Virus record (IMG/VR): IMGVR_UViG_2816332320_000003
Span: 1 to 64,000 of that record
DNA from: a virus
Taxonomy: Duplodnaviria; Caudoviricetes
DNA length: 64,000 nucleotides
Reading direction: 5' to 3' (one strand)
Positions 2,872 through 64,000 of the stretch are shown here, piece after piece (position 1 is the stretch's first letter; every line of letters starts with the position of its first letter). The notes beneath the pieces were generated by a model. That model was not told where the DNA came from, made no database searches, and worked only from the letters and a program-made list of their open reading frames with translations. The translations under genes and the position numbers were made by a program.

Positions 2872-2909
2872 GTTATCATCTCCTAATCAAACTAAGGTTT
2901 TATTTAGAA

Positions 2910-3251
2910 TTATGCAAAAGCCAAATTTACAACGTTGTTCGAATTTCCAATAAGCCTAACCACGAAACGATCAAATTTTGACTTATTTAACGAATAAGCT
3001 TTGTTCTTGCGCCAGTTCGTGTATACATGTTTCGATTCTGTGTATACAACAATTTTATTAATTTTATTTTCTAATAGCCAATCCATCATCTTATTAAATG
3101 CCATCATTTCTATTTCAGTACTGCTCCTTTTGCTATCTAATAGTTCATAATTTTGATATTCCAGATTGCCTTTTAAGTCAGTAATTGTAATCGATAACGT
3201 TGACTTTTTGTTAATTGACTGTGATAGACCATCAATATATGCTCGTAGCAT
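2910..3251 (-). CDS. RNase H-like domain protein, probably degenerate
   Basis: AYIDG, EMMA, VYTES, but NLA where active enzymes have ADxLA. Confidence 0.6.
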   Translation of the reverse strand: MLRAYIDGLSQSINKKSTLSITITDLKGNLEYQNYELLDSKRSSTEIEMMAFNKMMDWLLENKINKIVVYTESKHVYTNWRKNKAYSLNKSKFDRFVVRLIGNSNNVVNLAFA

Positions 3252-3252
3252 C

Positions 3253-3975
3253 CTATACCTCCTTTGCTTTAACGTTATACTCTTTTAATCCTTCATTCGT
3301 AATTTCCAAGCAATTCAATTGATGCCCATATGCAGCAGCTCCATCGATTCCAATCTTGTTTTCCCAGTACCAAATGTCAGCCTTGCCATGTAGATGAACG
3401 CATGGTGTGTGTCCGAATACTATTGTTTTATCTGTGTTCACCTTACCATTGTGAAACTCTTCTCTAATCCAAATCATCTCACTGTATGGAGTAAGCCTCC
3501 AGTTTTCATATGTGGGGTTTAATCCTGCGTGAACAAAGATATAGTCATCTTCTTCATGGTAGTATGGAAGCTCACTTAGGAAACTAATGTGGTGATTGAA
3601 ATTTTTAAGAATGAATCTCTTGGCTTTCACCGTATCGATTCCTGCATCAAAGAAGTCTAAGCCACAATAGGATTCGACTGTTTGTAACCCCCCATTCCTG
3701 AAGAAATTGAACTCGTTCATTCCATCGTTTGTAAGTAACCAGTCCAAGAACATTTTGTCATGATTGCCGACTAACGCGACCGCACCATATGTATTTACTA
3801 GTTCTATAACTTTATTCAATACCTGCTTGCTATATCGACCCCTGTCTACATAATCACCAAGGAGAATTAGTCTGTCTTGCGTTGGATCATACGCCACTTT
3901 CTCTAACATCTTGGTGAATAGATCATGGCACCCATGTAAATCACTCATGACAAGCATTCTTCGGTAAATACTCAA
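3253..3975 (-). CDS. metallophosphoesterase (Ser/Thr protein phosphatase family)
   Basis: SDLHG, GDYVDRG, GNHD, FVHAG, FGHTP, IDG motifs. Confidence 0.9.
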   Translation of the reverse strand: MSIYRRMLVMSDLHGCHDLFTKMLEKVAYDPTQDRLILLGDYVDRGRYSKQVLNKVIELVNTYGAVALVGNHDKMFLDWLLTNDGMNEFNFFRNGGLQTVESYCGLDFFDAGIDTVKAKRFILKNFNHHISFLSELPYYHEEDDYIFVHAGLNPTYENWRLTPYSEMIWIREEFHNGKVNTDKTIVFGHTPCVHLHGKADIWYWENKIGIDGAAAYGHQLNCLEITNEGLKEYNVKAKEV

Positions 3976-3987
3976 TCAATCATCTCC

Positions 3988-4266
3988 TTATTTGAGTACA
4001 TAGGTTGGAGTATTGTCATACTCATAATGATTTTCTTTGTCATGCCAACCTTTCTCATAACCCGCTATGTATCCATCATTAAAGCCATCTTCAGCTCCCT
4101 TTTCATACTGGTCTTGTGCATTTTTGAAATGGAGCATCTCTAGTAACAGACTTAAATCATTAGATGACAGTCCATCTTGACCACTATTTCTATCAAAAAG
4201 AAACCATCCAATCTTCCTCAAATCTTGTGATTCTGAGTTGATTAGTTCATTAATTTTACCTTGCAT
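3988..4266 (-). CDS. hypothetical protein with GxxxG repeats
   Basis: YEKGAEDGFNDGYIAGYEKG. Confidence 0.65.
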   Translation of the reverse strand: MQGKINELINSESQDLRKIGWFLFDRNSGQDGLSSNDLSLLLEMLHFKNAQDQYEKGAEDGFNDGYIAGYEKGWHDKENHYEYDNTPTYVLK

Positions 4267-4297
4267 AATAGCCTCCTTCCCCCATCAAATCAGCATT

Positions 4298-4651
4298 TTA
4301 TTCAAATAACTTCGGTTTAAAATACTGTGGTCTTTTATATCCATTAAAAAACATCTCTCTTTGGTAGCCATAAGGCAAGTCACTGAACACCTTGTCTTCT
4401 GTGACAGAATATCGATTCATAAGCTCGTGTAGAATTTCAATGCTTTCTTGCTTAGTCATTCTTTTATCAGTGTTCTTTAAACTTACCAATTGATATTCAC
4501 CATCATACTCTTTAGCAATTACAATGAATTTAGTTGGCTCTTTAATGCCTACATCCATACCAATGTAATAATTTGGTTTGAGGAATTTTTTGTATATGTG
4601 TAATTTAAAAGATTGCCATTTTCCTTTAAGCCATCTCAGAATCTTCTTCAT
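4298..4651 (-). CDS. hypothetical protein
   Basis: ORF with GGAGG RBS; stop inside palindrome arm. Confidence 0.7.
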   Translation of the reverse strand: MKKILRWLKGKWQSFKLHIYKKFLKPNYYIGMDVGIKEPTKFIVIAKEYDGEYQLVSLKNTDKRMTKQESIEILHELMNRYSVTEDKVFSDLPYGYQREMFFNGYKRPQYFKPKLFE

Positions 4652-62408: not shown

Positions 62409-62505
62409 GTCAACATCCCCTATTTTTATTAGATACACGGTAATATCAGGGCTAATTTGAAGCGTGAGAATTATACTCGCCACACTTTTCATAGCCCTTT
62501 TATTT

Positions 62506-63129
62506 TTACCGTATTTTATGGACTTCCAGCAATTTAGCTTCTAATTGCTTGTAGAAGCTTAATTGCCTTTCTATGAATTTCTGGCTATTTGATTCAATTT
62601 CTTTGCTGTTTGGCGCTGTATCAACGAAGTTTACTAACACAATGTATCCTTCCATTGTAATTAGATATTCATTTAGGTAGGGTCGAGGAACATCTTTATG
62701 ACTATCTATGATGTTTGGGTCATCATTCGGAGATATTTCATTTATTGTAACAAACTGTTTCTTTCTACTTTCTGGGAAATAGATAAAATTTATCTTCACA
62801 AAAAAATTTGAATCCTTGTCTTTGTAGTAAGTTTCATATCTAATTGGGAAAGATACACTATCATTTAGAACATCAGCTTCTCGGGAATCAATCTTGTTTT
62901 CTGGAAAGGACGTTGTCTTAATAGTTAAATATTCAGGCGAAATACTCAAGAAGTTCTCTGGTTTAAAAGCTGTCTTGAAGGATTTGAATTCCTCCTTAAA
63001 TGCATCGTAAGATAGAGGAACTGATTCCTTGTGTTCGGAAGTAACAGTGTTGACCTTATTTTCTGAATTACATCCGATCATAAGAATTGCAACCGCTACA
63101 AGAGACACGAATAACCTTCTCATTTTCAT
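62506..63129 (-). CDS. lipoprotein
   Basis: MKMRRLFVSLVAVAILMIG-C lipobox. Confidence 0.75.
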   Translation of the reverse strand: MKMRRLFVSLVAVAILMIGCNSENKVNTVTSEHKESVPLSYDAFKEEFKSFKTAFKPENFLSISPEYLTIKTTSFPENKIDSREADVLNDSVSFPIRYETYYKDKDSNFFVKINFIYFPESRKKQFVTINEISPNDDPNIIDSHKDVPRPYLNEYLITMEGYIVLVNFVDTAPNSKEIESNSQKFIERQLSFYKQLEAKLLEVHKIR

Positions 63130-63147
63130 GCAACTTCGCTCCAATCA

Positions 63148-63172
63148 AAAGAAGGGTCTAAGACCCCTCTTT
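63148..63172 (-). terminator. intrinsic terminator
   Basis: AAAGAGGGGTC-TTA-GACCCTTCTTTT on minus strand. Confidence 0.65.
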
Positions 63173-63201
63173 ATGGCAATTTCATACCATTATTTATATG
63201 C

Positions 63202-63840
63202 TTATTCTTCCCAAGCGTCACTGTGGACATTAACATAATCTGACTCATACACAGTTGCATTTATTGGCGTTTCTTTGTACGTTCGCTTGGTAGGGTTGGC
63301 GGTATAATAAGTATATGTTTTTAATACTCCTTTTGAAGTTTGACCCCTGTACCAAAATCCAATGAACCCTTTTTTCTTAGGACTTACTTCAAAGGAACCT
63401 TCTGCGCCAACCGCCTCATTCCTAGTACGAGAATCTTTGTATTCTGCTCCGACCGAGGCTTCTATGTCTGCAAGAATGCCCGCTTTAATTGAACCTGTGA
63501 ATTGAATGTTACCTGACCACTCAGAGCCTTGTGATTCTGACTTTGATACAGAGACTTTCATAGTGTATGGCTTGACATTTCTTCTATTGTCATGACTAAA
63601 CACTGCAATCTGTCGAAACTTATCTACCTCTATAAACTTGTTATGGTCGTACCCATCGAAAATTGGCCCAACAATCACATCATTTGGTGTATTAATACCT
63701 TGAGGTTTGGATTTTTCTGGATTACCCTTATGAACATCTGGTGTTGCAGGAGCAATTATTACAGACGTACTACTTGCATTTGCTACACTTGGCACAACAA
63801 GCAATAATGAAACTAACAATGCACCAACCCGTTTATTCAT
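63202..63840 (-). CDS. secreted protein with aerolysin/ETX-MTX2-like beta-hairpin character
   Basis: Sec signal ending ANA; Ser/Thr-rich strands flanking amphipathic hairpin, then V.PKK. Confidence 0.55.
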   Translation of the reverse strand: MNKRVGALLVSLLLVVPSVANASSTSVIIAPATPDVHKGNPEKSKPQGINTPNDVIVGPIFDGYDHNKFIEVDKFRQIAVFSHDNRRNVKPYTMKVSVSKSESQGSEWSGNIQFTGSIKAGILADIEASVGAEYKDSRTRNEAVGAEGSFEVSPKKKGFIGFWYRGQTSKGVLKTYTYYTANPTKRTYKETPINATVYESDYVNVHSDAWEE

Positions 63841-64000
63841 TACCATACCTCCAAAATCAAAGTTACTTACATTTTTTAGTATATTATGTATCTTTTGTTT
63901 GTTCAAGGCAATTTTTGGAATTTCAGTTGATTTGATAGTAACATTTGAGATTGTAACTTTCAAGTTTTTAATAAAATGAATGTTATATAGGTGTTATCTA

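Follow-up and report, generated by a model that had tools for sequence, protein, structure and literature searches.

About half of the early genes in a large SPbeta-like phage are separated by an 18-base palindrome whose centre differs from copy to copy, and among seven SPbeta-clade prophage genomes homologous blocks have their boundaries at the edges of these sites. Our best explanation, to which we give about an even chance, is that the sites are fixed crossover joints between early-region gene modules, exchanged in register between sites with matching spacers in the manner of lox or dif.

An interrupted palindrome at early gene junctions

The window, by which we mean the whole 64,000-nt stretch analysed, contains 28 perfect copies of ATNAAA-N6-TTTNAT against 0.97 +/- 1.05 in 100 dinucleotide shuffles (maximum 4), in line with the single chance copy estimated in a preliminary description of this DNA. 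The complete phage genome (163,172 bp) contains 54, with 3.65 expected. The repeated interrupted palindrome reported in that description is thus confirmed, but its counts of 25 perfect and 18 one-mismatch copies give way to 28 and, between genes, 21. One-mismatch copies in the window number 36 in all, the other 15 lying mostly in coding sequence, and chance predicts 50.8 per 163 kb, or about 20 per 64 kb. The fixed 6-nt spacer reported earlier holds up: N6 alone is enriched (54 copies), and other spacings from N0 to N14, as well as everted and direct arrangements, each give 0–5. Perfect sites and intergenic one-mismatch sites are listed by window position; no strand is assigned to them, and "sense" refers to the direction of the genes.

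983..1000, perfect site, TGA stop of sense-upstream gene in arm
2886..2903, perfect site, RBS directly after in sense
4284..4301, perfect site, stop in arm
7106..7123, perfect site, stop in arm; sense-downstream sigmaA-like promoter at 7099-7070
10246..10263, perfect site, stop in arm
13354..13371, perfect site, stop abuts arm
13744..13761, perfect site, stop in arm
14039..14056, perfect site, next start codon 17 nt downstream
20457..20474, perfect site, stop in arm; GC-rich hairpin next, no gene
20669..20686, perfect site, stop in arm
22869..22886, perfect site, stop abuts arm
24359..24376, perfect site, gene junction
25334..25351, perfect site, stop abuts arm
29367..29384, perfect site, stop in arm
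32274..32291, perfect site, stop in arm
34562..34579, perfect site, gene junction
34749..34766, perfect site, gene junction
41841..41858, perfect match within replication-block coding sequence, probably chance
45050..45067, perfect site closing DUF6884/TGT-like/VUT cassette; stop abuts arm
46846..46863, perfect site opening DUF6884/TGT-like/VUT cassette
47009..47026, perfect site, TGA stop in arm
48153..48170, perfect site, gene junction
48451..48468, perfect site, next start codon 18 nt downstream
50024..50041, perfect site, stop abuts arm
50369..50386, perfect site, then RBS
55452..55469, perfect site, TGA stop in arm; sense-upstream flank of APOBEC-like gene
55711..55728, perfect site, stop abuts arm
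59410..59427, perfect site, stop in arm
7399..7416, one-mismatch site, intergenic
8000..8017, one-mismatch site, intergenic
11449..11466, one-mismatch site, intergenic
19834..19851, one-mismatch site, intergenic
23096..23113, one-mismatch site, intergenic
26684..26701, one-mismatch site, stop in arm
29151..29168, one-mismatch site, intergenic
32532..32549, one-mismatch site, intergenic
32841..32858, one-mismatch site, stop in arm
44139..44156, one-mismatch site, intergenic
48790..48807, one-mismatch site, intergenic
53336..53353, one-mismatch site, stop abuts arm
54252..54269, one-mismatch site abutting stop of APOBEC-like gene
56109..56126, one-mismatch site, stop in arm
56943..56960, one-mismatch site, intergenic
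57785..57802, one-mismatch site, intergenic
59117..59134, one-mismatch site, stop abuts arm; sense-upstream flank of TnpB-like gene
59369..59386, one-mismatch site, intergenic
59866..59883, one-mismatch site, stop in arm
60806..60823, one-mismatch site, intergenic
63971..63988, one-mismatch site, intergenic

The genes that carry sites form the early cluster on the minus strand, and almost every copy is placed between a stop codon and the following ribosome-binding site (RBS), giving in sense the layout stop, ATnAAA-N6-TTTnAT, 15–20 nt, start codon. Stop-to-motif distance peaks at -4, where the stop forms left-arm positions 2–4, A(TAA)AA or A(TGA)AA (25–26 early-cluster cases). Fifteen of 17 previously reported in-arm stops stand, in register and with at most one mismatch, the copies at 1578 and 33923 having two; nine of ten reported abutting stops likewise stand, with no copy found at 28569. 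Intergenic space is only ~30–40 nt, which would explain why sites overlap stop codons and adjoin ribosome-binding sites. Some sites precede a terminator hairpin and others a promoter instead of a gene, and the gene strand has several sigmaA-like promoters within 20 kb, where a single promoter had been supposed; promoter consensus is absent from the 18-bp dyad itself. At equal gap length, 41 of 87 early-cluster junctions carry the motif versus none of 10 late junctions, a restriction that also fits a regulatory role and that we count against exchange. The replication and nrd blocks, described before as free of copies, contain one perfect (41841) plus three one-mismatch copies and one one-mismatch copy (18028), respectively, all within coding sequence and about the number expected by chance.

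Read as DNA, the site has a mirror symmetry that extends to t....a at the spacer ends, and its pooled n positions are symmetric between arms (p=0.36). Covariation between the two variable arm positions, sought genome by genome, was not found (in genome G001, 11 complementary pairs versus 15.4 expected). Because it combines dyad symmetry with this absence of covariation, the sequence fits a double-stranded DNA site of dimer type, not a hairpin: the half-site is (a)ATnAAA(t), and each copy has its own asymmetric 6-bp centre. The geometry also fits the tyrosine-recombinase core type, as proposed at the outset. A signal in polycistronic early transcripts, whether a processing site, a translation-coupling element or a site for an RNA-binding protein, would suit the A/U-rich sequence and its fixed position by the stop codon, 15–20 nt ahead of the next start. 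We nonetheless consider it very improbable, as the arms are mutually reverse complementary and hence differ in sequence to an RNA-binding protein, the n positions do not covary and so maintain no hairpin, the mirror symmetry is one of DNA, and a terminator or promoter, rather than a gene, follows some copies.

The motif is common to SPbeta-like and Tsamsa-like siphoviruses, at 14–54 copies each. Perfect copies, with the reversed pattern as control in brackets, number 39 (3) in G001, 44 (4) in G002, 42 (6) in G007, 42 (4) in Perkons, 27 (1) in Geobacillus virus E3, 14 (2) in SPbeta, 14 (1) in a Staphylococcus SPbeta-like phage, 29 (3) in phi127 and 23 (2) in Tsamsa. Phage K is weakly raised at 8 (2), phiCD211 is near chance at 4 (5), and SPO1 and Bastille have no perfect copy. 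Whole host genomes, a comparison suggested earlier, are far sparser (56–151 copies per 4.5–5.3 Mb).

Homology breakpoints and spacer identity

Among the seven related SPbeta-clade genomes, 284 of 1010 homology endpoints fall in the interval from -80 to +100 nt around a site; of 147 starts of homology, 76 have a site offset of -8 to +3, and of 137 ends, 36 have an offset of 16–21. The preliminary description had proposed looking for relatives' breakpoints at the sites, and they are there: 115 of 142 motif junctions (81%) have a breakpoint compared with 160 of 392 motif-less junctions (41%), an odds ratio of ~5–6 in every gap-length class, with P values inflated because orthologous junctions are counted in several genomes. 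Insertions of 205–1615 bp begin at the right site edge. When exact 18-mers anchored in at least three genomes are compared with controls that include RBS or stop-codon 18-mers, a flank varies in 19 of 29 motif 18-mers (controls, 14/60 and 7/52) and both flanks in 6 of 29 (controls, 1/60 and 0/52). Site ATAAAAAGACTGTTTTAA, spacer included, links different upstream (U) and downstream (D) modules as U1-D1, U1-D2, U3-D1 and U3-D2 across different genomes, thereby realizing all four combinations.

The test within the window comprises three junctions, the genomes compared including no close relative of this phage. At site 45050, the homology shared with contig L139 (75.6% identity) stops precisely at the outer site edge, and both sequences have the 6-nt spacer AGTTGA; at 46846, the first site base is where homology to contig L140 (92% identity) begins, with only 5 nt of upstream context in L140; and at 47009, the upstream gene loses its homology to L139 at 3 nt from the site edge. 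Together with the clade-wide breakpoints, these three sites sustain the exchange of modules contained in the earlier proposal of cassette shuffling. Its other element, reordering, finds no support: reordered, translocated or non-collinear blocks were sought among the seven related genomes and none was found, gene order being fully collinear.

Spacer statistics across 475 sites in 7 genomes show that copies within a genome avoid one another's centres. Identical direct spacers within one genome occur once versus 9.4 expected (P=0.0007), identical inverted spacers twice versus 7.5 (P=0.02), and palindromic spacers twice versus 10.4 (P=0.002). Exchanges link sites that share one spacer. This pattern lends no support to the Tn916-like tolerance of unlike spacers envisaged before. 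Under our preferred reading, a dimeric phage protein would recognise the arms, and only sites that share a centre would recombine productively, as with lox, FRT or dif. Two co-resident genomes could then swap a module between two matching joints, in register, and since the sites within one genome are all unlike, the intervening DNA would be neither deleted nor inverted.

Integrons offered the original analogy: there, accessory genes are separated by attC sites that often hold the preceding stop codon, with IntI acting on attC and attI. The phage sites resemble these in being recombination-type sites between accessory genes that often contain the preceding gene's stop. They flank single genes and small groups, have a geometry compatible with a tyrosine-recombinase core and show insertions at their edges. 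The corresponding mechanism, with 1–3-gene cassettes excised, captured and reordered behind one promoter by a recombinase tolerant of non-matching spacers, nevertheless seems highly unlikely. Collinearity, exchange between same-spacer sites and the several promoters all speak against it, the 18-bp site with ATnAAA arms is nothing like the long imperfect palindromes of attC, and no integrase-attI-promoter platform was seen.

Reassortment does not require the motif at every joint. The strict motif is present at 17 of 32 reassortment joints, and the remaining 15 indicate that other routes of exchange exist; ~81% of the clade's replaced-segment boundaries fall outside the sites, and a published 725-bp replacement in phi3T has the motif at neither end. 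It is possible, though we favour it less than spacer-matched exchange, that the sites are conserved for some other reason and that a phage annealase or host recombination, with no site-specific enzyme, uses the identical 18–26 bp as the sole homology between neighbours that are otherwise unrelated. Exchange of 18–26 bp lies near or under the usual minimum for homologous recombination, which counts against this possibility; that short-homology annealing within such a linker could perform the same exchange is in turn counted against a dedicated system. The linkers shared at reassortment joints measure 16–53 bp (mostly 16–31) and include the entire spacer, SPbeta annotates a Sak4-like ssDNA annealing protein, YorG, and contig L139 has an AAA_24 protein at the corresponding position. 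Avoidance of duplicate spacers would be expected here too, because repeats would cause deletions. Left unexplained are the avoidance of palindromic spacers and the persistence of dyad arms with strict 6-bp spacing across Bacillus, Geobacillus, Psychrobacillus, Staphylococcus and Mammaliicoccus phages. A precedent is provided by the promoter-early stem-loops (PeSLs) of T4-type phages, sigma70 promoters with terminator hairpins that recombine by homology (PMC2839356). These too are described as short conserved intergenic elements between small non-essential early genes, where recombination explains insertions, deletions and replacements between related phages (PMC2839356); the 18-bp dyad differs in having neither a promoter consensus nor a maintained hairpin.

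An array of operators bound by a dimeric phage regulator (a silencer, roadblock or early-gene shut-off) is rather unlikely. It would accommodate the dyad symmetry, independent half-sites and strict spacing, the confinement to the early cluster and the placement between stop codon and RBS, and the coincidence with homology boundaries could arise because each gene and its site together form an autonomous unit that recombination leaves intact. Dispersed operators have a precedent in the same phage family: SPBRE, the operator of the recombinase-fold repressor MrpR/YopR/SroF in SPbeta, occurs in ~10 copies at promoters, with a reported 15-bp ChAP-seq motif and SroF reported to contact up to 24 nt as a monomer (PMC10516654; bioRxiv 10.1101/2025.11.27.690993). 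SPBRE acts in repression rather than exchange, its core as derived here (approximately AATATGTATA) differs in sequence from the motif, and the only peaks obtained by MrpR ChAP-seq were ten at SPBRE (PMC10516654). Nothing about an operator calls for avoiding repeated or palindromic spacers. Replacement of both flanks around an unchanged 18-mer, which is far commoner for the motif than for RBS or stop-codon 18-mers, also speaks against an operator array, and so do the sites followed by a terminator hairpin, not a gene.

Candidate enzyme and likeness to known systems

A recombinase encoded outside the window had been predicted, with YopP/YopR as examples. A conserved gene of the tyrosine-recombinase fold does lie outside, and a YomM-like protein (genome 132152-133156), matching Pfam Phage_integrase, is possibly the enzyme and a better candidate than YopP/YopR. 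It is the most conserved protein across the family (63–68% identity; 48–50% in G002). Alignment with XerC-like and XerD chains shows that it retains R, K, H, H and the Tyr nucleophile, the second catalytic Arg being replaced by Lys in YomM of all six genomes. In both temperate and virulent phages the gene is part of the tail-gene block. Late regions are poor in sites, yet a site lies 0–400 nt downstream of yomM in six of the eight genomes that encode a YomM homologue, G007 and G002 being the exceptions. Co-occurrence of YomM and motif is confounded by shared ancestry, and in Lactococcus phage 949 a homologue with 33% identity is accompanied by only 3 motif copies. The enzyme step of the proposed exchange, including any action of YomM on the sites, is a candidate assignment.

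Heterospecific lox and FRT sites, used with Cre and FLP for recombinase-mediated cassette exchange, share with the phage sites inverted arms around a short asymmetric spacer that would set both identity and direction, so that only like spacers exchange and a segment between unlike sites is swapped in register. The phage sites differ in their 6-bp rather than 8-bp spacer, in occurring naturally 50–100 times per genome and in a candidate recombinase with Lys for the second catalytic Arg. Their arms measure 6–7 bp, compared with 13 bp at lox and FRT and 11–13 bp across lox, FRT and dif, a difference we count against our preferred reading. On Acinetobacter plasmids, pdif (XerC/XerD) sites are described as flanking dif modules, with adaptive genes in different replicons (PMC6449649). 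As there, many short recombinase-type sites with 6-bp centres occupy accessory regions and flank genes on both sides; pdif, however, is an 11-6-11 site of the host Xer system whose modules occur in varied contexts (PMC6449649), whereas the phage carries its own element in conserved order, with a separate centre for each slot.

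An inverted-repeat site at early-gene junctions

By its gene content, the phage is a member of the SPbeta-like group. Its genome is one contig of 163,172 bp, of which the window makes up the initial 64 kb. Genes from position 1 to ~104 kb of its genome lie on the minus strand and form an early cluster, which includes nrd, thymidylate synthase, ligase, a PolA-type replication block, and many small open reading frames; the late genes occupy 112–163 kb of the plus strand. Its YonO RNA polymerase homolog is 52% identical to that of SPbeta, and other SPbeta-type homologs are HU-like YonN, MrpR/YopR (with Pfam MrpR_N_CB and MrpR_C_cat matches), YopQ, YopP, and YomM, a protein with a tyrosine-recombinase fold. 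Its relatives are distant: 10–34 of its 268 called genes have homologs in the IMG/VR genomes G001, G002, G005, and G007 or in SPbeta, DNA-level alignment to these genomes is confined to the replication block, and megablast against the phage collection returned zero matches.

The window contains 28 perfect matches to ATNAAA-N6-TTTNAT, compared with 0.97 in shuffles, bearing out the preliminary description's claim of many copies far above chance. The whole genome holds 54 (3.65 expected), 48 of them within the early cluster, and enrichment is seen at a spacing of exactly 6 and at no other. Read along the minus-strand early genes, the site lies 3′ of the upstream stop codon, which occupies positions 2–4 of the left (stop-proximal) arm in 25–26 cases and overlaps the site by one base or abuts it in 13 more; earlier lists of such sites proved largely correct on re-checking. 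The next start codon usually follows after 15–20 nt. In long intergenic regions, the site keeps with either the upstream stop or the downstream ribosome binding site (RBS), and a stop-associated site in a long gap is followed by a terminator-like hairpin (20457) or a sigmaA-like promoter (7106). The replication block, previously described as free of copies, contains one perfect copy (41841), within coding sequence. Among junctions with gaps of 15–60 nt, 41/87 in the early cluster carry the motif, as opposed to 0/10 in the late region. Because the motif is missing from late junctions with gaps of matching length, the idea that sites are spread evenly for circularizing permuted genomes is weakened.

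In 475 sites pooled from seven genomes, the variable position has equal composition in the left and right arms (p = 0.36). The palindrome reaches one base further outward (a...t) and one base inward (t....a), with 6–7 conserved bp per arm and no conservation in longer flanks. Covariation between the two variable positions was absent in every genome tested; therefore, no hairpin is maintained, and an RNA structure is ruled out. The pattern is characteristic of a homodimeric protein that recognizes a pair of independent half-sites in double-stranded DNA, and it argues against an RNA element.

Features of the window that accompany the sites are as follows.

7099–7070, minus strand: strong sigmaA-like promoter (TTGACA-18-TATTAT), immediately beyond site 7106
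20941–22761, minus strand: OLD-family nuclease (AAA_15/AAA_21 ATPase and OLD-like TOPRIM), a defense-type gene within the early array
35004–43971: PolA-type replication block, aligning to more than 30 IMG/VR contigs at 67–73% DNA identity; the only aligning part of 27–53 kb, with unrelated flanks
45050–46863: three-gene DUF6884/TGT-like/VUT cassette (7-deazaguanine-type), with a perfect site at each end
50674–52089, minus strand: protein with a CoiA-like nuclease domain
54270–55376, minus strand: 368-aa protein with an AID/APOBEC-like deaminase domain (Pfam SNAD4, NAD1, and APOBEC families), with motif sites 55452 and 54252 on its two sides
57906–59099, minus strand: TnpB-like protein (Pfam OrfB_IS605 and Cas12f1-like_TNB), 63% identical to a Geobacillus virus E3 protein; no neighboring TnpA noted
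61167–62492, minus strand: HTH_3 protein that matches TPR weakly and may be an AimR/Rap-like regulator

Because homologs of the DUF6884/TGT-like/VUT cassette come mostly from Paenibacillus genomes, with Aneurinibacillus among the protein homologs, the host may be Paenibacillus. SPbeta and contig L139, which has homology to this cassette, have a PolIII-type (YorL) block in place of the PolA-type block; whole replication modules have therefore been swapped within the SPbeta-like family.

Distribution across phages and hosts

The motif is a trait of a phage lineage, not one of this phage alone or of its hosts.

Perfect copies of the motif per genome (reversed-pattern control in parentheses)
G001 (IMG/VR, 174.5 kb): 39 (3)
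G002 (IMG/VR, 133.9 kb; mostly ATGAAA-N6-TTTCAT): 44 (4)
Geobacillus virus E3: 27 (1)
SPbeta: 14 (2)
G005: 15 (1)
G006: 23 (3)
G007: 42 (6)
Psychrobacillus phage Perkons: 42 (4)
Staphylococcus phage SPbeta-like: 14 (1)
Mammaliicoccus phage phi127: 29 (3)
Tsamsa: 23 (2)
Lactococcus phage 949: 3 (0)
SPO1: 0 (1)
Bastille: 0 (0)
phiCD211: 4 (5)
Phage K: 8 (2)

The motif occurs at 45–95 junctions per genome. Five whole host genomes with such prophages contain 56–151 copies per 4.5–5.3 Mb, a density per base at least ten times lower than that of these phages. Its absence from SPO1 and Bastille, the weak excess in phage K, and its sparseness in hosts rule out a general host-related signal. The motif is not described in the papers that we consulted on SPbeta, YonO, MrpR/SroF, Tsamsa, and SPbeta/phi3T prophage recombination.

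Homology breakpoints and module exchange

The comparison covered a clade of seven genomes, six IMG/VR proviruses (G006 and G008–G012) plus SPbeta; pairs are 80–97% identical across 7–83 kb. In a base-level alignment of SPbeta with G006, homology sets in with a site's first base or halts with its last, and the sequence beyond is unrelated. Among 1,010 unique homology endpoints, 284 fell within −80 to +100 nt of a site, with sharp peaks for starts at offset −8 to +3 (76/147) and for ends at offset 16–21 (36/137). A breakpoint was present at 81% of motif junctions and 41% of motif-less ones (odds ratio ~5–6 per intergenic-length class), as anticipated by the proposal that breakpoints among relatives fall at the sites. 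P values are optimistic because the counts reuse orthologous junctions across several genomes; the effect is large and consistent.

Joints at which one genome's homology stops and another's starts numbered 32; the motif was found in 17, and degenerate copies in at least two more. Across six genomes, the site ATAAAAAGACTGTTTTAA links an upstream module (U1 or U3) and a downstream one (D1 or D2) in each of the four possible pairings, and U2–D1 occurs in a fifth genome. Only ~25 bp are common at this joint, and exchange therefore took place inside them. When exact 18-mers were anchored in at least three genomes, one flank varied for 19/29 motif, 14/60 RBS, and 7/52 stop-codon sets, and both flanks varied for 6/29, 1/60, and 0/52, respectively. 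Insertions of 205–1615 bp start at a site's right-hand edge.

The window's DUF6884/TGT-like/VUT cassette is also present in four or more other contigs, where its neighbors differ. Homology to L139 (75.6% identity) stops precisely on the outer border of site 45050, whose 6-nt spacer is identical in both, with unrelated sequence beyond; for the upstream gene, L139 homology ends 3 nt from site 47009. Homology to contig L140 (92% identity) sets in with the first base of site 46846, where L140 offers only 5 nt of context.

Gene order was fully collinear in all pairs, so cassettes were replaced in place and not moved: content differs slot by slot, and among the seven genomes we found neither non-collinear blocks (≥250 bp, ≥85% identity) nor translocated cassettes. 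The integron-like shuffling of one- to three-gene cassettes suggested initially does not match this picture. About 81% of the boundaries of replaced segments lie away from any site, and the published phi3T to phi3Ts replacement (positions 101,429–102,694) has the motif at neither end.

Taken together, it is probable that these are real, lineage-wide, dimer-type DNA sites that serve as preferred joints for in-register module exchange. The manner in which tailed phages exchange gene modules at gene boundaries has long been in question. Conserved linkers were proposed in Botstein's modular theory; to our knowledge, the mosaic joints of lambdoid phages and mycobacteriophages mostly lack such linker sequence. 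In the SPbeta-like family, a defined 18-bp joint occupies about half of early-gene junctions, and our comparisons place real exchanges there.

Spacers, known systems, and a candidate recombinase

The spacer was shared in all reassortment joints examined. This departs from the Tn916-like tolerance of non-matching spacers proposed in the preliminary description, since exchanges occurred at same-spacer sites. Homology-driven exchange predicts shared spacers as well, and the joints could reflect short-homology exchange at linkers conserved for some other reason, an explanation we regard as rather unlikely. Across the 475 pooled sites, identical spacers within one genome were scarce in the same orientation (1 versus 9.4 expected, P = 0.0007) and in the opposite orientation (2 versus 7.5, P = 0.02), as were palindromic spacers (2 versus 10.4, P = 0.002). 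Recombination between like centers needs unique centers, as repeated ones would lead to deletion or inversion of DNA, and asymmetric ones, as a symmetric center would lose direction. A plain operator needs neither, and it is quite improbable that the sites serve as operators with recombination as a by-product. The spacer statistics are compatible with an address code, and we infer that spacer-matched site-specific recombination is the most likely mechanism.

The cores of lox, FRT, and dif have inverted arms around a 6–8-bp asymmetric center, and the site resembles them in its 6-bp spacing, mirror arms, and few palindromic spacers; however, their arms are ~11–13 bp, one monomer each, whereas those of the site are only 6–7 bp. 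Modules of the pdif/dif type have an 11-6-11 layout, resemble chromosomal dif, and are used by host XerC/XerD, unlike the site with its ATnAAA arms and far sparser occurrence in hosts. These arms presumably also differ from B. subtilis dif. Integron attC sites are imperfect palindromes of 57–141 bp with GTTRRRY-type core sites, whereas the present sites span 18 bp and their flanks show no longer conservation. Integron arrays vary in order through cassette excision and re-insertion; here, order is collinear and content changes by slot. In place of an integron platform (intI, attI, and a single promoter serving promoterless cassettes), a consensus scan, which is weak evidence, matched several strong sigmaA-like promoters on the gene strand at 1–20 kb, counter to the one promoter envisaged for the whole array, and terminator hairpins follow some sites. 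A limited Pfam scan detected no integrase gene in the window. PeSL elements carry a sigma70 promoter and a terminator stem-loop internally, but the 18-mer has no −35/−10 pair, its arms do not covary, and nearby promoters or terminators, where found, lie outside it.

We also considered two known SPbeta elements. SPBRE, its known repeated element, is a 15–24-nt MrpR/YopR/SroF operator at about ten promoters (PMC10516654; bioRxiv 10.1101/2025.11.27.690993), whereas the motif sits at several tens of junctions per genome. K-mers common to ten published SPbeta MrpR target regions yielded a core of ~AATATGTATA, unrelated to the motif, which rules out identity with SPBRE. The promoter at 7099–7070 may be repressor-controlled, because its spacer holds ATACATA, resembling this core. 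YonO has a single start site upstream of yonK and transcribes late genes (PMC5467207); the motif lies in the early cluster and is therefore not a YonO promoter.

A candidate enzyme is encoded outside the window:

132152–133156 of the phage genome, plus strand (locus L111:1153–2157): YomM-like gene

The YomM-like protein is the most conserved across these otherwise divergent phages (63–68% identity); in G002, identity is 48–50%, and the motif likewise differs at the variable position. It has a Pfam Phage_integrase match and can be aligned to XerC-like and XerD chains. Relative to the tyrosine-recombinase catalytic set R-K-H-R-H/W-Y, it retains the first Arg together with Lys, the two His residues, and Tyr, and has Lys in place of the second Arg in all six genomes. 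Phage 949 has a distant YomM homolog and almost no motif. Co-occurrence within one lineage suggests YomM as a candidate and is not proof.

We tentatively propose that SPbeta-like and Tsamsa-like siphoviruses may carry out natural cassette exchange, in which 50–100 heterospecific lox-like sites with private 6-bp address centers would be cut and rejoined by a YomM-like recombinase, co-resident phages and prophages swapping early modules slot by slot with order intact. If this enzyme action is true, it would provide a naturally occurring equivalent of engineered cassette exchange, would explain the turnover of accessory, defense, and counter-defense genes in large temperate Bacillus-group phages, and would offer a tool for targeted gene swapping in SPbeta genetics.

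A site lies 0–400 nt downstream of the yomM homolog in six of eight genomes with YomM, the exceptions being G007 and G002. In SPbeta (NC_001884, 39902–40300), ~397 bp between the yomM stop and the downstream site are absent from G006, an insertion exactly at the site edge. The YomM-like gene is always directly upstream of the tape-measure gene, Tsamsa and Lactococcus phage 949 included, with two small tail-module genes on its other side. This arrangement is kept in SPbeta-like, Tsamsa-like, and Lactococcus 949-like phages, some of which are described as virulent.
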